64,000 nucleotides of DNA from Acidobacteriota bacterium (lineage in GTDB: Bacteria > Acidobacteriota > Polarisedimenticolia > Gp22-AA2): contig JBHIBC010000001.1 in the NCBI GenBank assembly GCA_046758905.1, positions 32,343 through 96,342 of the forward strand. Reading direction: 5' to 3'. A model generated the notes under the pieces. That model saw only the letters and a program-made list of their open reading frames with translations, had not been told where the DNA came from and searched no databases. This document shows, piece after piece, positions 7,853 to 26,284 of this stretch. The position numbers and the translations under genes are program-made. Numbering within the stretch: the first letter of the stretch is position 1; each line of letters starts with the position of its first letter.

Positions 7853-7881
7853 TTGACAGCGCGCGGGGTTTCGATTAGCTT
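7853..7881 (+). promoter_or_regulatory. sigma70-like promoter TTGACA-N17-TAGCTT upstream of the CheW-like operon; start codon about 13 nt after the -10 (short or leaderless 5' UTR)
   Basis: A perfect -35 hexamer is present. The -10 is weak but retains the T1, A2 and T6 positions. The spacing places the transcription start (TSS) within a few nt of the ATG at 7894. Confidence 0.4.
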
Positions 7882-7893
7882 CAGCCCGGCGCG

Positions 7894-8286
7894 ATGAACC
7901 TCCTCCTCGTGAGCGTCGGGCGCAGGCAGTACGCCGTGGCCGCCGATGCGGTGGAGCGGATCGTCGATCCGGCGCTCGAGCCCGAGTTCCACAGGGAGCC
8001 GCAGGCCCGAGAGGCGACCCACCGCGGAGAGCGCTATCCGGTGGTGGATCTTCACGACATGTCGGGCGAGCGGCGGGGCGATCGCTGCGTGTACCTGTTT
8101 CTCGCCGCCGGCGGCCGCCGCGCCGTCGTCCCGGTCGACGGCGCCGAGGCGATCCGGGACGTGCCGGCGGCCGCGATCGCGCCCCTGCCCTCGTACATCT
8201 TCACCTGCGACCGGCGCCCCTTCAGAGGGATCTTCTCCGACGGCCGGAGGGCCAGGCTCCTTCTGGACGAGGGCGCCCTGCCGTGA
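7894..8286 (+). CDS. CheW-like domain protein
   Basis: The whole 130-aa protein matches the CheW-like domain pattern: RRQYAVAADAVERIV, YPVVDLHDMSG and RLLLDEGAL blocks. No CheA or MCP gene is nearby. Confidence 0.6.
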   Translation: MNLLLVSVGRRQYAVAADAVERIVDPALEPEFHREPQAREATHRGERYPVVDLHDMSGERRGDRCVYLFLAAGGRRAVVPVDGAEAIRDVPAAAIAPLPSYIFTCDRRPFRGIFSDGRRARLLLDEGALP

Positions 8287-8792
8287 AGGCGGAGCGGCGA
8301 TCGCGGTTCTTGGCCCTGCGGGTGGGCGGGGCGGTGGCCGCGTTACCGCTCCACCTGGTGCGGGAGGTGGTCGCATCCTCGGAGGTCGTCCCCGTGCCGG
8401 GGAGCCTGCCGCACGTGGCGGGGGTGGCCCTGCACCGCGGAGCGGCGCTGCCGGTGTACGATCTCCGACGCTTCGAGCCGGTCTGGCCGGGCGCGGCCCC
8501 GGCGCCGCCGGAGGCGGCGCCGCAGCTCATCGTCTGCGTGCTGGGCGAGGCGCTGGTCGGGCTGCTGGGCGACGGGGTCGACCTGCTGGAGGGCGGCCGG
8601 CGGGCGGAGCCGGGTCGGGAGGACGGGGACACGGATCTGCGGCGGGAGTACCTGATCGGCCTGGTGATGTCCGGCGACCGCGGGATCGCCCTGCTCGACG
8701 CGGCCAGGCTCTTCACATCAATGGGCGTGCCGGTCGACGGCGGCCGCGGCGCCAGGGAGGGAGACGGTGAAGAAGATCCTGCTGGCCGATGA
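8283..8792 (+). CDS. CheW-like domain protein (second copy)
   Basis: The CheW-like blocks FLALRVGGAVAALPLHLVREVV, LPVYDLRRF and GIALLDAARLF are present. It overlaps the upstream gene by 4 nt. Confidence 0.55.
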   Translation: MKAERRSRFLALRVGGAVAALPLHLVREVVASSEVVPVPGSLPHVAGVALHRGAALPVYDLRRFEPVWPGAAPAPPEAAPQLIVCVLGEALVGLLGDGVDLLEGGRRAEPGREDGDTDLRREYLIGLVMSGDRGIALLDAARLFTSMGVPVDGGRGAREGDGEEDPAGR

Positions 8793-9978
8793 CAGCATCA
8801 CCATCCAGAAGGTGGTCGAGCTGACCTTCTCGGAGGGCGATTACCAGGTGATCTGTGTCAGCAACGGTGCGCAGGCCCTCAAGAGGATCGTCGAGGCGCG
8901 CCCCGACATCGCCCTTCTCGACGTGATCATGCCGGAGGTGAACGGTTACGAGGTCTGCGAGCAGATCAAGCGCGACCCCTCGACCGCATCGATCCCGGTG
9001 CTGCTGCTCACCGGGACGTTCGAGCCGTTCGACCAGAAGCGAGCGGACGCGGCGGGGGCCTCGGGGCACCTGACCAAGCCGTTCGAGTCCCAGACGCTGG
9101 TCACCAAGGTCGAGGAGCTGATCGCGGCGACCCCGAGGGTCGCGGCCGCCGACGCCGCGGGCATGGATGTGATCGCGGCGGGGGAGGTGTACCACGTCGA
9201 CGCCGCGACGCAGGGCGACGTGGGACCGGCGGCGCCCGCGCCGGCCGGCGCGGAGCAGGGCGGCGCGGTGGATGATGCGGGCCGGGGGTTGGCAGAGCCG
9301 CCCCCGCCCGGACCGGCCGTCCCGCCCCCGCCCGCCCCGGTGGGGCCGGCGGAGACGGCCCCGGAGGGGCCCGTCCCCCACCCCTCCCTCGAGGTCCCCG
9401 ACCCCGGGGCGGGCGGATCGTACCTCGGCTTCGCCGATGTCGGGCTCGGGTCCGAGGACGCCCCGGAGATCGTGCCGGACCGCTTCGACGAGGGCGCTCC
9501 GGCGGACGGGTCCACCCAGAGGATCGACCGGGCGGCGCTGGCGCAGGAGCTCGGGCCGCCGTCCGAGCCGCCGCCCGCCGAAGGGGCGGCGCGCTTCTCG
9601 GGCGAGGAGGTGGACGGGCTGACCGGCGGCTTCGAGGTCCAGGAGCCGTCGGACGCTGCGGGGGGGCCGCGCTCTCCGGGAGAGGTCGAGGCGGAGGCGG
9701 CCTGGACGCCGCCGCCCGAGGCCCCGCCCGCCGAGACGTGGCAGGAGGCGGAGGCGATGCCTCCCGAGCCGCCCCCGGCGGAGCGCGGCCCGCGCTCGCC
9801 GGGCGACGGGGCGCCCGCCGGCCTGACGCCCGAGGCGATCGAGCTGATCGCCGAGCGGGTCGTGCAGAGGATGTCGGACAGGATCGTGCGCGAGATCGCC
9901 TGGGAGGTGATCCCGCAGGTGGCGGAGACCCTCGTCCGGCGGCGCATCAGGGAACTGGAAGAGAACGAGGGGAGCTGA
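8767..9978 (+). CDS. response regulator with N-terminal CheY-like receiver, ~230-aa Pro/Ala/Glu-rich linker and conserved C-terminal helical segment (RomR-like architecture)
   Basis: The receiver motifs are MKKILLADDS, the phospho-Asp context DVIMPEVNGYE and LTKPF. A long low-complexity linker follows. The C-terminus is LTPEAIELIAERVVQRMSDRIVREIAWEVIPQVAETLVRRRIRELEE. A strong SD (GGGAGGGAG) precedes the GTG start. Confidence 0.7.
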   Translation: MKKILLADDSITIQKVVELTFSEGDYQVICVSNGAQALKRIVEARPDIALLDVIMPEVNGYEVCEQIKRDPSTASIPVLLLTGTFEPFDQKRADAAGASGHLTKPFESQTLVTKVEELIAATPRVAAADAAGMDVIAAGEVYHVDAATQGDVGPAAPAPAGAEQGGAVDDAGRGLAEPPPPGPAVPPPPAPVGPAETAPEGPVPHPSLEVPDPGAGGSYLGFADVGLGSEDAPEIVPDRFDEGAPADGSTQRIDRAALAQELGPPSEPPPAEGAARFSGEEVDGLTGGFEVQEPSDAAGGPRSPGEVEAEAAWTPPPEAPPAETWQEAEAMPPEPPPAERGPRSPGDGAPAGLTPEAIELIAERVVQRMSDRIVREIAWEVIPQVAETLVRRRIRELEENEGS

Positions 9979-19906: not shown

Positions 19907-20055
19907 CTCCAGGCCTCCAACCAGCGCGGAACCGACGTAAGTTGCTGAAAGTATAGGGAGCTAGGTCATCGGTGTCAAGACGGAGCGCACCGGGGCGTGT
20001 GGTATATTCCCTTGTCTGCAAAGGACTTCCGACCAAGAGCCGGGAGAAGTCCGTG

Positions 20056-21372
20056 ATGCCCCTTCCCGTGGTCGCCATCGTTGGCGCGCCGAACGCCGGC
20101 AAGTCCACTCTTTTCAATAGATTGCTCGGCAGGCGCAGGGCCATCGTCGCCGCCCGTCCCGGGGTGACGAGGGACCGGATAGCGGGCGAGTGCGACATCA
20201 TCGGCGCGCGGTTCATCCTCCTGGACACCGGCGGCGTCCTCGGCGGCCAGTGGGGGGACGACCTGGGCCGACAGGTGAGCCGGGAGGCCCTCCGGGCCGC
20301 GGCGGAGGCCGACCTGGTGCTGCTCCTCGTCGACGCGCGCGCCGGACTGACGGCGGGCGATCTTGAACTCGCACGACGGCTGCGGTCGGCCGGCAGGCCC
20401 GTGATCCCGGTGGCCAACAAGATCGACGCGGTCGGGCAGGAGGGGCTGGAGATCGATCTGTACCGGCTGGGGCTCGGGGAGGTCGTGCCGATCTCCGCCG
20501 AGCACGGCCGCGGCATCGACGGCCTTCTGGAGAGGATCCGCGATGCCCTCCCGCGGCGCGAGGTCGGGGAGGGAGCGGCGGGCGTCCCGGTCGCCATCAT
20601 CGGCCGGCCCAACGTCGGCAAGTCGTCGCTGTTCAACCGGATCGCCGGGCAGGACAGAGCGATGGTCTCGGCCTCTCCGGGCACCACCCGCGACCCGGTC
20701 GACGCCACCTTCGAGCGCAGCGGTGCGCCTTTCCGGATCATCGACACGGCGGGGATCCGCAGACGCGCCGGCGCCGGCGACGAGGTCGAGTGGGTGAGCG
20801 TGATGAAGGCCCGCCGGGCGATCCGCGAGGCGCAGGTGGTGATCGCCATGGTCGACGCCGTGGAGGGAGTGGGGCACCAGGACCGGGCGCTGCTCGGCGG
20901 GATCGGTCGCGCCCACACGCCGGTCGTGCTGGCCGTGAACAAGGTGGATCGGCTGCCGGAGGGGTCGGGGGAGATCTCCCGGCGCCTGAGGGAGATCCGC
21001 GAGTCGTTGCGGTTCGCGCCGCATGTCCCCGTGGTGGGGCTGTCGGCCACGACCGGGCTGGGGGTCGAGGGGCTCCTCGAGATCGTCATGGAGCTGCGCC
21101 GCGAGTCGACCCGCCGCTTCGGCACCGCCGAGCTGAACACGGCGCTGCGCGGCATCGTGGTGGAGAGGCCGCCCCCCTCCGATCGCGGCCGCGAGGTGCG
21201 GCTCTACTACATGACCCAGGTCGGCACCGCTCCGCAACGGTTCGTCATCTTCACCAACGGCCGTCCGGTCGCCGCCTCCTACCGCCGCTTTCTGGCCGCC
21301 GCCCTGCGCCGCCGCCTCGGGCTGAGATCGACCTCCCCCGTGCTGGCGTTCCGCCGCCGCCCGTCGCGTTGA
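20056..21372 (+). CDS. der: ribosome-associated GTPase Der (EngA), tandem GTPase domains
   Basis: Two G1 motifs (GAPNAGKSTLFN and GRPNVGKSSLFN) and a KH-like C-terminus are present. The true start is the internal ATG with SD GGGAGAAG. Confidence 0.9.
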   Translation: MPLPVVAIVGAPNAGKSTLFNRLLGRRRAIVAARPGVTRDRIAGECDIIGARFILLDTGGVLGGQWGDDLGRQVSREALRAAAEADLVLLLVDARAGLTAGDLELARRLRSAGRPVIPVANKIDAVGQEGLEIDLYRLGLGEVVPISAEHGRGIDGLLERIRDALPRREVGEGAAGVPVAIIGRPNVGKSSLFNRIAGQDRAMVSASPGTTRDPVDATFERSGAPFRIIDTAGIRRRAGAGDEVEWVSVMKARRAIREAQVVIAMVDAVEGVGHQDRALLGGIGRAHTPVVLAVNKVDRLPEGSGEISRRLREIRESLRFAPHVPVVGLSATTGLGVEGLLEIVMELRRESTRRFGTAELNTALRGIVVERPPPSDRGREVRLYYMTQVGTAPQRFVIFTNGRPVAASYRRFLAAALRRRLGLRSTSPVLAFRRRPSR

Positions 21373-21397
21373 CTCCCCCCAGACCGGGTGCTATATT
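21369..21397 (+). promoter_or_regulatory. near-consensus sigma70 promoter TTGACT-N17-TGcTATATT (extended -10) upstream of mglA
   Basis: The hexamers were read from the sequence. An SD (GGAG) lies between the -10 and the ATG at 21419. Confidence 0.5.
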
Positions 21398-21418
21398 CGC
21401 CACCCCTGCGGAGACCGG

Positions 21419-22354
21419 ATGGTCCTGTTCAACTATTCGACCCGCGAGCTCACCGCCAAGATCGTCTATTACGGGCCGGGGCTCTGCGGCAAGACGACCA
21501 ATCTCCAGTACATCTACGATTCCCTCCCGGACACGGTCAAGAAGGGCAAGATGCTCTCGCTCGCGACCAAGGCGGACCGCACCCTGTTCTTCGATTTCCT
21601 CCCGATCGACCTCGGCACCATCCGCGGCATGAAGACGCGCGTGCAGCTGTACACGGTCCCCGGCCAGGTGTTCTACAACTCCACCCGCAAGCTGGTCCTC
21701 AAGGGCGCGGACGGCATCGTGTTCGTGGCCGACTCGCAGTCCAAGATGCTGGAGGCGAACGGCGAGAGCTACAAGAACCTGGAGGACAACCTGCGGGAGA
21801 TGGGGCTCAAGCTCGACGAGATCCCGCTGGTCATGCAGTTCAACAAGCGGGATCTGCCGAACCTCTCCTCGATCGAGGAGATGAACACGCGGATCAACCG
21901 GCACAACGCCCCTTTCTACGAGGCGGTCGCGACCACCGGGATCGGAGTGGAGGACACGCTCAAGGCGATCACCAAGCTGGTGCTCAATAACCTGGCCGCC
22001 AAGTACAGGCTGGAGGGGGTGGCCCCGGCTGCGGAGGCCGCCCGCAGGGCCGTCCGCGCCCGGCGCCGGCTCCCCCTGCCGGCAGGCCGGAGGCGGCGCC
22101 GAGCCCCGCCGCTGGACCGCCGCCGGCGCCGGCCGCGGAAGCGGCGCAGGAGGACATCGCGCTCGACGCGCTGGAGATCGGAGCGTCGGCCGAGCCCGCC
22201 CGCCCGCCGGCCGCCGCGCCGCCCGCGGCGGCTGCCTCGCCCGGGCCGGTGCCGCTCGCGGCGGCGGCGGGGCCCGGGGAGGCGAGTCTGGCCCTCGGGG
22301 AGGAGATCGCGCGGGAGGGGTTGGACGAGGCTCCCGAGGGCACCGTGGACCTAG
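21419..22354 (+). CDS. mglA: MglA-like Ras-family small GTPase (GTPase domain = first ~196 aa; remainder of ORF is frame-suspect)
   Basis: Over ~196 aa it matches Myxococcus MglA: YYGPGLCGKTTNLQYIY, TLFFDFLP, LYTVPGQVFY and QFNKRDLP. The last ~110 codons are poly-Arg/Pro, typical of a wrong frame in GC-rich DNA. Confidence 0.8.
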   Translation: MVLFNYSTRELTAKIVYYGPGLCGKTTNLQYIYDSLPDTVKKGKMLSLATKADRTLFFDFLPIDLGTIRGMKTRVQLYTVPGQVFYNSTRKLVLKGADGIVFVADSQSKMLEANGESYKNLEDNLREMGLKLDEIPLVMQFNKRDLPNLSSIEEMNTRINRHNAPFYEAVATTGIGVEDTLKAITKLVLNNLAAKYRLEGVAPAAEAARRAVRARRRLPLPAGRRRRRAPPLDRRRRRPRKRRRRTSRSTRWRSERRPSPPARRPPRRPRRLPRPGRCRSRRRRGPGRRVWPSGRRSRGRGWTRLPRAPWT

Positions 22355-22713
22355 GAGAGGACCTCCTCCAGGAGCTGGAGGAGGAGCCGGTCGCCGCGGG
22401 CATGCAGGCCGGGCCTCGGCCCCCCGGCCCGGCCGCCGCGCCCGCGCCGGGGGACGCGCCCGGCCCGCGCGCCGTGCGCCGTCCCGCGCCCGTCGAGGAG
22501 CAGCCGATCGACCTCGATGAGCCGATCGACCTCGACGGGGACGGGTGGGACGCCGCGTCTCCCGCGGCGGGGGAGCCACGGGAGCCCGCCGTGATCGACA
22601 TCGGGCCCGTCTCCCCCGGCCGGGACGGCGTGATCGAGGTCCCCGTGAGCGCCACGGTGGAAGGCCGCCCCGTCCGCCTCACGCTGCGCGTGAGCGTCCG
22701 CGTCGCCCGGTGA
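22249..22713 (+). CDS. hypothetical acidic Pro/Ala-rich protein with structured C-terminal ~40 aa; possibly the true 3' continuation of mglA after a frameshift
   Basis: Its frame is open from 21991 and reads as plausible protein (EAAQEDIALDALEIGASAEP...IDIGPVSPGRDGVIEVPVSATVEGRPVRLTLRV). The overlapping mglA frame is junk-like over the same stretch. Confidence 0.35.
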   Translation: MPLAAAAGPGEASLALGEEIAREGLDEAPEGTVDLGEDLLQELEEEPVAAGMQAGPRPPGPAAAPAPGDAPGPRAVRRPAPVEEQPIDLDEPIDLDGDGWDAASPAAGEPREPAVIDIGPVSPGRDGVIEVPVSATVEGRPVRLTLRVSVRVAR

Positions 22714-22726
22714 AGCCGGTCCCGGG

Positions 22727-23566
22727 ATGCCCGATGGGAGAACGACGCCGGCGGCGCCGCTGAACCGACCGGGCCCCGATCCCGCCGAGGTCCTGCGCGG
22801 CGCCCCGGAGCAGCGCGAGATGGCGCTGATCCTCGGGCTGGCCTTCTTCCTGAACCTGTTCGGCGGGTCGCTCCTGCAGCTCCTCCACTTCCGCTGGGGG
22901 CTCTTCCTCAGCCAGATGCTGTTCATCGCCGCGCCGGCGCTGGCCGCGATCCGGTGGTTCTACCTGGACCGCGGGCGGATCCTTCCCTTCGGCCCCGTCG
23001 CGGTGCGGACGCTGGTCCCGGCGCTTCTCGGCGCCGCGGGCCTATACCACCTCCTGACTCTCCTCCTGGCGGCGCAGCAGAGGCTCCTCCCGGGCCCGCC
23101 GCCCCTCCGGCCGGCCCTGGAGGAGCTGTTGACCTATCGCGGTCCGGCCGAGTTCGTCGTCGTCCTGTTCCTGGCGGGAGCGGTGGTCCCCGTCTGCGAG
23201 GAGATCCTCTTTCGCGGGTTCGTGCAGGCCGGCTTCGTGCGCGCCCTGGAGAGCGCGCCCAAGGGGATCGCCGCGACCGCATTGGCGTTCGCGGTGTTCC
23301 ACCTCGATCCCTGGCGGTTCGCGCCGACGCTGGTGCTGGGGATCTTCCTCGGGGTGCTGGCGCATCGCAGCCGCGACCTGGTCCCCGCCATCCTCGCCCA
23401 CTCGACCAACAACGTTCTGGCGATCGGCGCGGGCGCCCTGGGGCCGGCGAGCGCCGAATGGCGAGCGGCGCCATGGTCCCTGGGGGGGGCGCTCCTCCTC
23501 CTGGCCGTGGCCAGCTTCCTCCTCGGCCGCCGCCCTGCCTGTCGGCGCCGCGGGCGCGTGCTATAA
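22727..23566 (+). CDS. CPBP family intramembrane glutamic endopeptidase (CAAX protease/Abi family)
   Basis: The motifs EEILFRG, FAVFH and HSTNN lie in TM helices. Confidence 0.7.
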   Translation: MPDGRTTPAAPLNRPGPDPAEVLRGAPEQREMALILGLAFFLNLFGGSLLQLLHFRWGLFLSQMLFIAAPALAAIRWFYLDRGRILPFGPVAVRTLVPALLGAAGLYHLLTLLLAAQQRLLPGPPPLRPALEELLTYRGPAEFVVVLFLAGAVVPVCEEILFRGFVQAGFVRALESAPKGIAATALAFAVFHLDPWRFAPTLVLGIFLGVLAHRSRDLVPAILAHSTNNVLAIGAGALGPASAEWRAAPWSLGGALLLLAVASFLLGRRPACRRRGRVL

Positions 23567-23606: not shown

Positions 23607-24731
23607 ATGAAATGCCCGTCCGTCACCGTCGCCCTCGGGGCCGCGCTCTGCCTGGCCTCGCCGCCGGCGCTGTCGCAGTCGCCGATCCGGTTCAGCTCGT
23701 ACTCGTCCTACAGCGCCAAGTTCGACCTCGCTTCCAAGAAGTTCTCCCTGATCACCAGCGTGGTGGTCTACAACATCAGCGGACAGACGTTCAGCGACGT
23801 CCGTTTCAAGCAGACCTATCCCGAGGGCGTCACCGTCAAGGAGACGTACCAGCGCGACGTGGGCACCGAGGCGACCGGAGAGCAGCGCTCGGAGAGGCGG
23901 GTGGAGGACAACGTCTTCTACGCGAGCCTCGACAAGTTCCGCAACCGTCAGTACGTCGTGATCTTCAACGAGCTGGAGCTGGCGCGCCGGCTGGACGAGA
24001 TCACCTTCCCGGGGATCGAGATCAGCTACCTCGACGGGCAGGGGGAGCGCCGCATCGAGCAGCTCGCCGACAACACCTACGACCTGTTCATCTACTCGAA
24101 CGTGGTCGGGGGGCTGACGCGGTTCCTCAAGAAGTACAACCGGATCACGTTCGATTTCACCAAGGCCGTGCCGGACCGGACGGAGTGGGAGTTCGCCCCG
24201 ATCGTGGCGAGCGCGCGCGGGCGCTTCCCGACCGGGATCATCGGCACCTTTCCCGGTGAGGACCGCTACAACGGCTACTTCCGCATCCGCAGCGGGCCTC
24301 CCGGCGACAACGTCCAGATCCTGGTCGTCTACCGCGACGAGGACGGCAAGACCAAGATCTCGGACAGCGAGCGGCTGCTGTCCGAGGTGCGCGACTACCT
24401 CAAGTGGTGCGGCGAGTTCGAGACCGTCGAGGAGGGGCTGAAGGTCTCGAGAGGCAAGTGGAAGAAATACAAGGACGCCTGGTCGATCGAGGGACGCTGG
24501 CGCGACACGATCAAGGATCGTCTCGGCGAGGGCGTCCTGAAGGCGAAGGTGTTCCACGGCCCGCGCGAGGACGTGGAGTACATCGTGCTGGCGCTGGCGC
24601 ACGGCCGCGGCCTGGGCCCGGAGTCGAGCGCCACGCCCAATCCCGGGAAGGAGGCGGAGCTCTCGGCCGAGCTCGACGCGCTCCTCGAGACCTTCAGGTC
24701 GTACATCGTGCGGCTGTCTCACGAACGCTGA
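23607..24731 (+). CDS. secreted protein of unknown function (signal peptide, Lys/Tyr/Phe-rich)
   Basis: The N-terminal signal peptide is MKCPSVTVALGAALCLASPPALSQ. No recognisable domain was found. It has its own promoter and SD. Confidence 0.5.
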   Translation: MKCPSVTVALGAALCLASPPALSQSPIRFSSYSSYSAKFDLASKKFSLITSVVVYNISGQTFSDVRFKQTYPEGVTVKETYQRDVGTEATGEQRSERRVEDNVFYASLDKFRNRQYVVIFNELELARRLDEITFPGIEISYLDGQGERRIEQLADNTYDLFIYSNVVGGLTRFLKKYNRITFDFTKAVPDRTEWEFAPIVASARGRFPTGIIGTFPGEDRYNGYFRIRSGPPGDNVQILVVYRDEDGKTKISDSERLLSEVRDYLKWCGEFETVEEGLKVSRGKWKKYKDAWSIEGRWRDTIKDRLGEGVLKAKVFHGPREDVEYIVLALAHGRGLGPESSATPNPGKEAELSAELDALLETFRSYIVRLSHER

Positions 24732-24786
24732 GATCGCGCCGCCGGCGGCCCGGACGCCCCCTCCGCCGGTCGGCGCGGCGTCCGCG

Positions 24787-24814
24787 TTGACGCCGGGCGG
24801 CGCCGTGCTATAAT
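24787..24814 (+). promoter_or_regulatory. sigma70 promoter TTGACG-N16-TGcTATAAT (extended -10) for glnA
   Basis: The hexamers were read from the sequence. An 8-bp inverted repeat starts immediately downstream, at the predicted TSS. Confidence 0.55.
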
Positions 24815-24868
24815 GCGCGCCCACTTCGGCGCGCAACCCACACCCCCTTGTCGGAGCGACGGGATCTC

Positions 24869-26284
24869 ATGAAAAAGCCAGCGGACGCGTTGAGAATGGT
24901 CAAGGACCACGACATCCGGATCGTCGACCTGCGGTTCATGGACCTGCCCGGACTATGGCAGCACTTCTCGGTGCCGGCCCACGAGCTGAGCGAGACCTCG
25001 CTCGAGGATGGGTTCAACTTCGACGGTTCGAGCATCCGCGGTTTCCAGGCGATCAACGAGAGCGATATGACGGTCATCCCGGATCCGGAGACCGCGTTCG
25101 TCGATCCGTTCACCGAGATCCCGACGCTGGCGATCATCTGCAACGTGGTCGACCCGATCACCAAGGAGCGCTACGGGCGGGACCCCCGGGGGATCGCGCA
25201 GCGGGCCGAGAACTACCTGAAGTTCGCCCGGATCGCCGACCGGGCGCACTTCGGGGCGGAGGCCGAGTTCTTCATCTTCGACGACGTCCGGTTCGACCAG
25301 AACACCCACTGCGGCTACTACTTCGTCGACTCGGTCGAGGGCCAGTGGAACTCGGGGAAGGACGAGCGCCCCAACCTGGCGTACAAGCCGCGGCACAAGG
25401 AGGGCTACTTCCCGGTGCCGCCGCACGATCATTTCCAGGACCTGAGGTCGGAGATGGTCCTCAACCTCGAGCGCTGCGGCGTGATGGTCGAGGCCCACCA
25501 TCACGAGGTGGCGTCGGGCGGCCAGGCGGAGATCGACGTCCGCTACGACACCCTGACGCGCGCGGCCGACAACGTTGTGGTCTACAAGTACGTGGTCAAG
25601 AACACCGCCCGGGCGCGCGGCCGGACCGTGACCTTCATGCCCAAGCCGCTGTTCGGAGACAACGGGACGGGGATGCACTGCCACCAGAGCATCTGGAAGG
25701 ACGGGCGGAACCTTTTCGCGGGGGACGGATACGGCGGGCTGTCGGAGACGGGCCTGCATTACATCGGCGGGCTCCTGAGGCACTCCCCGGCGCTCGCGGC
25801 GCTCATCGCTCCGACCACCAACTCCTACAAGCGGCTGACGCCGGGGTTCGAGGCGCCGGTCAACCTGGCCTATTCGCGCCGGAACCGGTCCGCCGCGATC
25901 CGCATCCCGATGGTCTCCGCCGGCCCGGAGGCGGTGCGGCTCGAGTACCGTCCTCCCGATCCGTCGTGCAACCCGTACGTGGCGTTCGCCGCGATGCTCA
26001 TGGCGGGCCTCGACGGCATCGAGAACAAGATCGACCCGGGCAGGCCGCTCGACAAGGACATCTACGGGCTGGGGCCGGAGGAGCTGAAGGACGTGCCGTC
26101 CCTGCCCGCCTCGCTAGAGGACGCCCTCGGGCAGCTCGAGCGGGACCACGAGTTCCTCCTGAAGGGTGATGTCTTCACCGAGGACAACATCCGCCTCTGG
26201 ATCACCTACAAGCGCGAGCGCGAGGTCGACCCCATGCGCCTGCGGCCCCACCCGTTCGAGTTCGCGCTCTATTTCGACATCTGA
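24869..26284 (+). CDS. glnA: glutamine synthetase type I
   Basis: The N-terminus [23 protein letters not shown] and the motif [16 protein letters not shown] are present. A tyrosine in a context resembling the GSI adenylylation site ([11 protein letters not shown]) is present. The ATG at 24869 is preferred over the TTG at 24848. Confidence 0.9.

Follow-up and report, generated by a model that had tools for sequence, protein, structure and literature searches.

Within the window, that is, the 64,000-nt stretch of acidobacterial DNA analyzed here, the gene under study is assembled as a 311-aa ORF that starts with an ATG at 21419 and ends with a TAG at 22352-22354. An exact look-up of this ORF showed that it is not on record. 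The features that we assign to the locus, from the promoter to the end of a second reading frame, are collected in Table 1.

Table 1. Features of the mglA-like locus, in window coordinates
Feature	Position	Strand	Basis
Sigma-70-type promoter-like element: -35 TTGACT (21369-21374), N17, extended -10 TGcTATATT (21389-21397)	21369-21397	+	scan and conservation
Shine-Dalgarno-like GGAG, 5 nt upstream of ATG 21419	21410-21413	+	sequence; invariant in 5 loci
MglA-type Ras-like G domain, aa 1-196	21419-22006	+	M. xanthus MglA identity, PDB match, predicted fold
P-loop GPGLCGKT, aa 19-26	21473-21496	+	Ras-like GxxxxGK[ST] present
G3 motif TVPGQ, T79-Q83	21653-21667	+	TxxGQ form, Thr replacing Ras Asp
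NKRD, aa 142-145	21842-21853	+	Ras-like NKxD present
Helix alpha5 with K182/K186	21959-21985	+	alignment with M. xanthus MglA
Zone in which the frame switches by a net -1 from MglA to tail	22036-22147	+	junction scan, tblastn HSPs
Out-of-frame read-through of the MglA frame, ~105 codons, ending at TAG 22352-22354	22040-22354	+	family profile score
Native C-terminal tail, ~222 aa, Ala/Pro/Gly/Glu-rich, net charge -21, ending at TGA 22711-22713	22045-22713	+	family profile, homologue alignment
Acidic motif 1, QEDIALDALEIG, consensus pEDLALDALEi	22147-22182	+	homologue alignment
Acidic motif 2, ASLALGEEIAREGL, consensus dvidLxdEIdL; weaker in the window than in relatives	22282-22323	+	homologue alignment
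Acidic motif 3, TVDLGEDLLQELEEE	22342-22386	+	homologue alignment A2
Acidic motif 4, PIDLDEPIDLDGDGW	22504-22548	+	homologue alignment
Conserved C-terminal module, VIDIGPVSPGRDGVIEVPVSATVEGRPVRLTLRVSVRVAR	22591-22710	+	homologue alignment, profile search, AlphaFold2 of P0006

Residues 1-196 align end to end with MglA of M. xanthus, with 122 of 195 positions identical (62.6%). When the ORF is searched against the PDB, the top matches are MglA from M. xanthus (E=2.4e-78) and T. thermophilus (1.2e-67), followed by Rab35 (1.4e-05). The Pfam Ras match of the G domain (E=4.4e-07) is above cutoff. The predicted fold of an orthologue (P0006) superposes on 6izw_A with a TM score of 0.89, and Foldseek ranks 1-14 are all MglA. 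Judged by its sequence, the G domain belongs to the MglA family of prokaryotic Ras-like small GTPases, Group 1. Besides the nucleotide-binding motifs listed in Table 1, the Arg finger R54, T79 and Q83 align with R53, T78 and Q82 of M. xanthus MglA, relative to which G19, G21, K25, T26, R53, T54, L64, I67, T78, Q82, N141, K142, D144, K181 and K185 are all conserved. The Arg finger and the catalytic Gln have established roles in MglA (Miertzschke 2011, as summarized in PMC4316618).

The promoter-like element consists of a -10 hexamer TATATT (21392-21397), extended by a TG at 21389-21390, and a -35 hexamer that overlaps the stop codon of der. It is the sole sigma-70-like match within 21000-23000, where shuffled sequences lead one to expect 0.0. 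Across five orthologous loci, TTGAC, TGyTATATT and the GGAG of the putative ribosome-binding site are invariant, while the flanks vary. An earlier note, made from the letters of this DNA, had recognized an MglA homologue in the first ~196 aa, a near-consensus promoter ahead of it and the lack of a stop where MglA normally ends; all three observations hold.

The frame break and the second reading frame

There is no stop near 22007, the usual end of MglA, and the ORF from 21419 stays open to 22354. The MglA frame continues into Arg-rich nonsense because the frame is broken within 22036-22147. Arg makes up 45% of residues 208-311, whose net charge is +46 and whose match to the family profile amounts to -1.8 bits (E=0.39); an Arg-rich tail in the conserved frame is seen in no homologue. 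By its profile score, this read-through is non-native coding sequence, in agreement with the proposal that ~110 Arg/Pro-rich codons represent a wrong frame. We also considered conservation of the Arg-rich frame, in view of BLAST coverage of 86-95% for three related proteins (P0002, P0004 and P0005), and rejected it as a low-complexity artefact given that same score.

The second frame opens at 21991, right after a TAA at 21988-21990, and runs through Pro/Ala/Glu-rich sequence to the TGA at 22711-22713, as the earlier note had described, so that both frames are open over 21991-22354. Its earliest possible start is a GTG at 22249. The tail that it encodes fits the family profile with 116 bits (E=6e-37), and joining the G domain to it brings the score to 646 bits over profile positions 1-417. 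It is 41-48% identical to the tails of 14 homologues, which is the level found among those tails (mean column identity 48%). From ~22245 onward, codon-position GC (~0.93 at position 3 and ~0.55 at position 2) matches the tail frame, not the MglA frame, but a GC3 frame plot fails to locate the switch point because Pro/Ala codons make two positions GC-rich.

The position of the switch is narrowed by two other approaches. A profile-scored junction scan gives a plateau of 646-647 bits over 22040-22090, dropping on either side, and tblastn with the orthologue from locus L001 aligns in frame 2 over 21419-22117 and in frame 1 over 22039-22710, the HSPs overlapping at 22039-22117. Each of the 15 other L001 genes that match the window does so as one single-frame HSP at the syntenic position. 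The zone of the break is made up of degenerate (CCGGCG)n repeats, a tract with a GC content of 88-90% in which a C3 run (22041-22043) and a C5 run (22072-22076) are candidate indel sites. Compared with the homologues, the window shows a net change of -1, as a 1-nt deletion would cause. In 12 of 12 distinct related loci, a common frame encodes G domain and tail, whereas in the window the two occupy frames 2 and 1. While this bears out the one-base indel that had been suggested, its site, placed at 22020-22080, can be bounded only to ~22036-22147. This is due to the absence of close relatives from the searches. A JGI metagenome scan with the window tail returned none that could pin the indel, a GTDB genome scan for same-species contigs returned 14 loci, none with more than 57% tail identity, and the best tail identity to the window among the best 120 homologues is 49%.

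The long-tailed MglA family and the origin of the break

Ninety of the best 120 homologues share the tail motifs and the C-terminus and are encoded full-length by one ORF, 379-452 aa long (median 419.5); once repaired, the window product would measure ~431 aa. The family is found in MAGs of Acidobacteriota (Candidatus Polarisedimenticolia, "gp22" and relatives). The family layout is an MglA G domain followed by a ~220-residue tail, in which a Pro/Ala-rich disordered linker with four acidic-hydrophobic motifs leads to a basic beta-hairpin of ~30 residues. We defined the tail signature as EDLALDALE / D.IDL.DEIDL / DLGEDLLQELE / DLDEPIDL, with the terminus PGQER.I.[LV]PV.A.V.GR.VRL.L[RK]VTVRL, and the whole of it is present in the second frame of the window. 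While the 12 related loci and the 90 homologues each have one uninterrupted ORF, the window needs a -1 shift to obtain it. Given the single-ORF homologues, the 12 in-frame loci and a tail that scores 116 bits where the Arg-rich continuation scores -1.8, we conclude on grounds of homology that the interval 21369-22713 holds one gene, not two, and that it belongs to this long-tailed MglA family. The right annotation is one frameshifted (or repaired) mglA-like gene of ~431 codons, rather than a 311-aa GTPase plus a hypothetical ORF. A genuine MglA with a long acidic tail, one of the options in the earlier note, is thus what its closest homologues support. That such a fusion would be unusual is true against the characterized 195-aa MglAs, but within the clade it is the rule. 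The family appears to be undescribed so far, and literature searches for a tailed acidobacterial MglA found nothing.

As for the tail itself, motif 3 holds the invariant or near-invariant alignment columns D102, L103, G104, L107, L108, E110, L111 and E114. Motif 4 is encoded by an 18-nt direct repeat (22502-22535) and contains a proline that would break a helix. For the last ~30 residues of the C-terminal module, the predicted structure is an amphipathic beta-hairpin of two strands. In AlphaFold2 models of orthologue P0006, the two strands (375-386 and 389-400) have a pLDDT of 91-93 in two independent runs, while the linker and acidic motifs remain at 36-61. The first run used 90 near-identical family members and modeled the G domain poorly (pTM 0.25); the second, with 60 Myxococcota MglAs added, improved the G domain (pTM 0.51) and left the tail at low confidence. 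Tail and hairpin found no match in Pfam, NCBIfam or PDB profile searches. A profile of the C-terminal module matched 34 proteins among 1.84 billion representatives. The 13 that we inspected are all whole or fragmentary members of the tail family, two of them chimeric gene calls, and all those extending far enough N-terminally have an MglA G domain. The remaining weak matches, on long proteins, resemble repeats.

We put at about 70% the probability that the locus is one long-tailed MglA gene with an acidic tail, interrupted by a single net -1 break, which most probably arose in sequencing or assembly. We favor an artefact, or else a very recent mutation, because the tail motifs are intact, motif 1 lies upstream of any possible start in its frame, the 15 neighbors are unbroken and similar breaks are found in other assemblies. 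The latter affect the same tract in P0112/L020, where an intact tail lies in another frame, and in P0024, P0081 and P0050. The very GC-rich tail is a repeated trap for assemblers and gene callers, and the same artefact is present in several database entries. Alternatively, the break may be real, the organism having lost the tail through a 1-nt deletion, or a 2-nt insertion, that arose recently in the GC-rich repeat. It would then produce either no stable protein or an MglA G domain that runs into Arg-rich nonsense, and the consensus would have captured a strain variant or a gene that has only lately become a pseudogene. Degenerate hexamer repeats are prone to slippage in vivo as well as in sequencing, and the assembly is not generally error-prone since the 15 syntenic neighbors are intact; moreover, with G domain, promoter and ribosome-binding site intact, a truncated switch could still be made. 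Against this, nothing downstream has decayed: ~220 codons are open, they carry all the family motifs and their identity is that seen among intact orthologues. Purifying selection in the clade is also very strong: the G domain is 85-93% identical across it, compared with only 52-63% for the neighboring Der, which implies strong selection against loss. That every related locus and full-length homologue is in frame, and that the breaks in other short-read assemblies differ in position, which suggests a technical cause, likewise weigh against a real break. We consider it unlikely, though well short of far-fetched.

A programmed -1 slip by ribosomes or RNA polymerase in the GC-rich tract would yield both a short Arg-tailed and a full-length tailed MglA, and the direction of the shift and the long overlap of the frames are formally compatible with it. 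But the MglA frame contains no slippery heptamer of the form X XXY YYZ between 21990 and 22150, nor does the stretch offer an A/T run on which transcription could slip: its homopolymers are limited to G5, C4, C5 and C4. Since its relatives need no such event and the Arg-rich product is without conservation, programmed shifting strikes us as very improbable. Most improbable of all is that there are two genes, a basic-tailed MglA (21419-22354) and an overlapping 154-aa acidic-protein ORF from the GTG at 22249, an option that the earlier note had also raised. This ORF does exist (22249-22713) and tail-only entries occur in databases; those inspected, however, have no other recognizable domain and look like family fragments or chimeric gene calls. 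The conserved motif 1 lies upstream of the GTG in a frame without any earlier start codon, no Shine-Dalgarno sequence precedes 22249, and every relative encodes G domain and tail as an in-frame fusion. Orthologues show neither a stop at the usual MglA end with an unrelated gene behind it nor a conserved Arg-rich frame, the two patterns that the earlier note had named as contrary to its proposal.

Comparison with known MglA systems

MglA is the paradigm of bacterial Ras-like polarity switches, and work on it has dealt with a single-domain protein of 195 aa. The window protein has in common with the MglAs of M. xanthus and T. thermophilus (PDB 5YMX, 6IZW, 6H17 and 3T12) the P-loop, TxxGQ, Arg finger, Gln, NKRD and pocket residues. 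While canonical MglA is a single domain of ~195 aa (195-213 aa in 119 of the 120 Myxococcota matches listed), the long-tailed family adds a conserved tail of ~220 aa. The genomic setting differs as well. Canonical mglA is usually found beside mglB, whereas long-tailed mglA follows der in a housekeeping neighborhood whose order is kept in related loci: HU (minus strand), der, long mglA, a CPBP (Rce1-like) protease, an unknown protein of ~374-375 aa and glnA. A GAP of the MglB type, encoded at another locus, would regulate the tailed MglA. It is unseen here because no mglB was found in the window, where Pfam scans covering 29 ORFs matched no Roadblock/LC7 domain and the best tblastn match to MglB sequences had an E of only 0.14. 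In four related loci, the 10 kb around long-tailed mglA likewise yielded no Roadblock domain. These searches are consistent with the earlier statement that the window lacks MglB.

In the reference survey, mglB is coupled within four genes in 390 of 449 MglA-family members, and 59 of 449 are without an adjacent mglB (Wuichet and Sogaard-Andersen 2014, PMC4316618). That survey applied a size filter of ~150-240 aa and left out sequences longer than 240 aa (PMC4316618). The window product and the family as a whole exceed this limit, and the acidobacterial clade of tailed MglAs may have been overlooked for this reason. The orphan MglAs, Bdellovibrio bacteriovorus MglA and M. xanthus SofG, are likewise without an adjacent mglB. 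SofG has extensions beyond the G domain, and in Bdellovibrio MglA Gly21 is substituted; the window MglA keeps Gly21, and sensitivity to a GAP is therefore expected. The acidic motifs and the beta-hairpin tail of the window family have no counterpart in either of these proteins.

A proposed role for the tail

The tailed MglA would act as a GTP/GDP switch by the MglA mechanism, with R54 as intrinsic Arg finger, Gln83 and the T79xxGQ motif. Clues to what its tail might do come from work on MglA (Baranwal et al. 2019, PMC6785124). In M. xanthus, the D/E-rich C-terminal helix of MglB binds an MglA pocket formed by K181, K185, L64 and I67, and the Glu-rich helix of RomR can replace it; the alpha5 lysines are kept only in those MglAs that have an acidic helix partner. 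The four pocket residues (K182, K186, L65 and I68 in window numbering) are invariant or nearly so in the long-tailed family. The MglB helix and RomR-C resemble the tail in that each places a short acidic-hydrophobic stretch on an extension that is flexible and often Pro-rich, a likeness in manner of working only. While the acidic helix of M. xanthus is provided in trans by MglB or RomR, the family represented in the window carries its acidic motifs within the GTPase itself. The tail would serve as a flexible tether, its acidic motifs may fill the alpha5 / beta2-beta3 pocket in cis, in place of the M. xanthus MglB helix, and the terminal hairpin would mediate docking or self-association, for instance at a pole or envelope site.

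Taken further, and here we are speculating on a doubtful point, the tailed family could be a self-regulating polarity GTPase, in which acidic motifs acting in cis on the MglB/RomR pocket would tune nucleotide exchange or block partners, while the hairpin would anchor or dimerize the protein. It might then be a bacterial counterpart of the hypervariable region plus anchor of eukaryotic Ras, with possible participation of the Rce1-like CPBP protease. Should the tail act on the known allosteric pocket or direct the protein to a site, the MglA switch would be wired in a new way, and polarity and motility would become more accessible to study in uncultured Acidobacteriota. Eukaryotic Ras, Rho and Rab have a similar layout, with a G domain, a variable disordered linker and a short conserved C-terminal element. 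Rce1 processes eukaryotic CAAX GTPases, and an Rce1-like CPBP (PF02517) gene lies directly downstream of long-tailed mglA in every locus, but this adjacency carries little weight because the whole 15-gene neighborhood is syntenic. CAAX-type processing of the tail itself was discarded, as there is no Cys: the window protein ends in RVSVRVAR and its relatives in VRLSR. The nearest NCBIfam models of the CPBP protease are CTERM-sorting proteases, which act on exported proteins.

A G domain and an acidic tail in overlapping frames

Residues 1-196 encoded by the tailed MglA GTPase gene (mglA-long) align with M. xanthus MglA with a single internal one-residue gap and 122 of 195 positions identical (62.6%). 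In a sequence search of the PDB, the MglAs of M. xanthus (E=2.4e-78) and T. thermophilus (1.2e-67) came out on top, followed by Rab35 (1.4e-05) as the next family. Every mechanism-relevant residue that we checked in the alignment to M. xanthus MglA is conserved, that is, in M. xanthus numbering, G19, G21, K25 and T26 of the P-loop, the Arg finger R53 together with T54, T78 and Q82 of the TxxGQ motif, N141, K142 and D144, and L64, I67, K181 and K185 of the allosteric pocket. The earlier note had described an MglA frame without its usual stop, running on into Arg-rich sequence and overlapped by a Pro/Ala/Glu-rich frame, all of which we confirmed on the sequence. There is no stop at the usual MglA end (~22007), and the ~105 further codons are 45% Arg, with a net charge of +46. 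The overlapping frame encodes an Ala/Pro/Gly/Glu-rich product with a net charge of -21, ending in ...AVIDIGPVSPGRDGVIEVPVSATVEGRPVRLTLRVSVRVAR, and the codon-position GC pattern matches this frame from ~22245 on (window GC, 70.8%).

Features of the mglA-long locus and of its protein family, in window coordinates
Feature	Position	Strand	Details
Promoter-like site	21369-21397	+	TTGACT-N17-TGcTATATT, upstream of mglA-long
GGAG	21410-21413	+	Precedes ATG 21419
MglA-frame ORF	ATG 21419 to TAG 22352-22354	+	311 codons
Overlapping frame	Open from 21991 to TGA 22711-22713	+	TAA 21988-21990 just before
Degenerate (CCGGCG)n array	22060-22133		Within break zone
Tail motif 1	22147-22182	+	QEDIALDALEIG; family pEDLALDALEi
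Tail motif 2			Family dvidLxdEIdL
Tail motif 3	22342-22386	+	TVDLGEDLLQELEEE; family vDLGEDLLQELEeE
Tail motif 4	22504-22548	+	PIDLDEPIDLDGDGW; family iDLDEPIDL
Terminal module	22591-22710	+	
Family C-terminus			IGxLxPGQERxIevPVxAxVxGRxVRLxLrVTVRLsr

We used the 311-aa ORF to search 5.8 billion proteins and took the best 120 matches, in which the G domain is 85-93% identical and nearly all of which are much longer than an MglA. Ninety of them are full-length, uninterrupted ORFs, 379-452 aa long with a median of 419.5, whereas the best 120 matches of M. xanthus MglA are, bar one, 195-213 aa long. In these homologues, the G domain is followed by a Pro/Ala-rich region in which four acidic-hydrophobic motifs are conserved, and all the family motifs and the C-terminus are present in the second frame of the window. 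Scored against a family profile built from the 90 full-length proteins, the second-frame tail reaches 116 bits (E=6e-37) and the Arg-rich continuation -1.8 bits (E=0.39), while the G domain joined to the second-frame tail reaches 646 bits over profile positions 1-417. The related loci come from Acidobacteriota MAGs, including "gp22" and Candidatus Polarisedimenticolia, an Acidobacteriota class.

Twelve distinct related loci contain both the G domain and the tail, and in every one of them the two are in a single frame. When 16 genes of the syntenic relative L001 (GCA_041486695.1) were compared with the window by tblastn, the long MglA matched in frame 2 at 21419-22117 and in frame 1 at 22039-22710, 14 genes gave one single-frame HSP apiece at the syntenic position, and AMMECR1 had no match in the window. 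Codon phase thus shifts from 2 to 1, a net change of -1, as with a 1-nt deletion or a 2-nt insertion. Family-profile scores for all possible junctions form a plateau of 646-647 bits at 22040-22090 and drop outside ~22036-22147, a zone of 88-90% GC with runs of C3 to C5. A single added base there, for instance in the C3 run at 22041-22043 or the C5 run at 22072-22076, would give back an ORF of ~431 codons. The 5' part of this zone is favored since the frame-1 peptide GRPRPAPAPPAGRP is similar to the family GPRPVAPPxRPA. Judged from these comparisons, the window locus is one gene with one frame break.

Origin of the frame break

A separate tail gene starting at GTG 22249, the first possible start codon in the tail frame, is ruled against by motif 1, which lies upstream of that codon and whose conservation such a gene cannot explain. 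Programmed frameshifting at the break is disfavored as well: neither an X XXY YYZ heptamer nor an A/T run occurs in 21990-22150, the shift is needed by no relative, and the Arg-rich product shows no conservation, as its profile score indicates. The indirect evidence instead favors either an error or a mutation that arose very recently, because, besides the position of motif 1, the tail shows no downstream decay (it is 41-48% identical to relatives, the level among the relatives themselves), mglA-long appears to be under strong selection (across the clade, identity is 85-93% for the G domain, against 52-63% for Der and 78-84% for GlnA), and independent assemblies have frame breaks elsewhere in the same GC-rich tract. 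In P0112, a homologue encoded at locus L020, an intact tail runs on in a different frame, while the homologues P0024, P0081 and P0050 have Arg-rich or otherwise aberrant ends. We put the probability of an assembly or sequencing artefact at roughly 70%; a real recent mutation seems unlikely by comparison, even if the clean neighboring genes in the tblastn comparison with L001 count against an artefact.

At L020 (981-2056), the intact tail follows an apparently duplicated EDLALDALE segment, and at L019 (1266-2404) another frame takes over, leading into a divergent terminus, ...NPVRLRIRVTMDGE. In the curated gp22 MAG with locus L009 (7224-8211), it is the gene for the ~375-aa protein, two downstream of mglA-long, that is split, frame 3 then 1, another broken frame in this set of assemblies.

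There is nothing unusual in the frame anomaly as such. The tailed family, on the other hand, appears to be undescribed, since our literature searches found no description of a tailed acidobacterial MglA, its members are publicly named "hypothetical protein," "MglA" or, by mis-transfer, "signal recognition particle receptor subunit beta," and sequences >240 aa were all left out of the reference survey of Ras-like GTPases in prokaryotes (PMC4316618).

The tail and its possible role

The tail has no relative in Pfam, NCBIfam or PDB. A profile of the last 78 residues found only 34 proteins among 1.84 billion representatives. The 13 that we looked at all belong to the same tail family, whole or as fragments, with an MglA G domain wherever the sequence extends far enough N-terminally, and two are chimeric gene calls; on this 13-protein sample, the terminal module looks specific to tailed MglAs. 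P0243 and P0246, in which an unrelated N-terminus (resembling a transcription-regulator C-terminus in P0243) is joined to the tail, probably reflect contig chimeras or gene calls in a wrong frame and not new architectures. For the orthologue P0006, both AlphaFold2 runs predict a two-stranded hairpin (residues 375-386 and 389-400, pLDDT 91-93) after a low-confidence linker with a slight rise at a DLDEPIEL motif. Judged by its pattern of residues, this hairpin is amphipathic (one face is hydrophobic and the second strand basic), suggesting packing on a partner, on a second copy or on the G domain.

The G domain would cycle between GTP and GDP in the manner of MglA and be sensitive to an MglB-type GAP, as expected from the retention of Gly21, Arg54 and Gln83. 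In the known system, a flexible C-terminal extension of MglB carries an Asp/Glu-rich helix that binds an MglA pocket formed by K181 and K185 (α5) and L64 and I67 (β2-β3 loop) and thereby stimulates nucleotide exchange; a Glu-rich helix from RomR can stand in for it, and the α5 lysines are conserved only in MglAs with an acidic-helix partner (Baranwal et al. 2019, PMC6785124). Since these four residues vary little or not at all among the tailed MglAs, we propose that the acidic motifs might be cis ligands of, or competitors for, this pocket, with the Pro/Ala linker as a tether and the predicted hairpin as a docking or dimerization element. A role in targeting is equally plausible by analogy with RomR, in which either the Pro-rich linker or the acidic C-terminal region suffices by itself for targeting to the pole (PMC3441718).

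In line with the earlier note, which had seen no MglB gene in the window, a Roadblock/LC7 gene is absent among the 29 window ORFs scanned, and none lies within 10 kb in four relatives. RomR co-occurs with MglA/MglB, has acidobacterial homologues and ends in an α-helical, Glu-rich region with invariant Trp and Pro (PMC3441718). The window encodes, at 8767-9978 (+), a ~403-aa response regulator likened to RomR by this described architecture: a receiver domain, a ~230-aa Pro/Ala/Glu-rich linker and a helical C-terminus, ...REIAWEVIPQVAETLVRRRIRELEENEGS, with a Trp and a Pro. Just 5' of it lies a CheW-like ORF (7879-8286, +; Pfam CheW, E=3.6e-12), which does not belong to a full chemosensory cluster since a methylmalonyl-CoA mutase gene lies before it and a ValRS gene after.

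Promoter and gene neighborhood

The earlier promoter call is backed by five aligned loci, in all of which TTGAC, TGyTATATT and GGAG are unchanged within variable flanks; the der-mglA spacer is ~46 nt, and no other promoter-like site occurs within 2 kb. The -35 hexamer shares bases with the der stop codon. The der (EngA) ORF itself (19972-21372, +) is listed from GTG 19972, and its true start is probably downstream since orthologue homology begins at 20056.

The order HU (minus strand), der, mglA-long, CPBP/Rce1-like protease, ~375-aa protein, (AMMECR1), glnA, glnE is kept in all loci examined. AMMECR1, on the minus strand between the ~375-aa gene and glnA (L001, 13136-13954; L016, 13110-13916), is absent from the window (24731-24869) and not called in L017 or L018. 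With the CPBP gene starting 0-95 nt after mglA-long and no terminator-like site found, co-transcription is plausible. In every locus, the gene for this intramembrane protease (22727-23566, +) directly follows the tailed mglA; the closest NCBIfam models of the protease, all below cutoff, are ABC-permease/CPBP fusion and CTERM-sorting proteases, and its true start may be ATG 22820, preceded by GGAG, since homology begins at ~aa 17-31. The next gene (23607-24731, +), always two downstream of mglA-long, encodes a protein of 374 aa whose N-terminus resembles a signal peptide; this protein has no match in Pfam or NCBIfam and is 60-70% identical across the clade.
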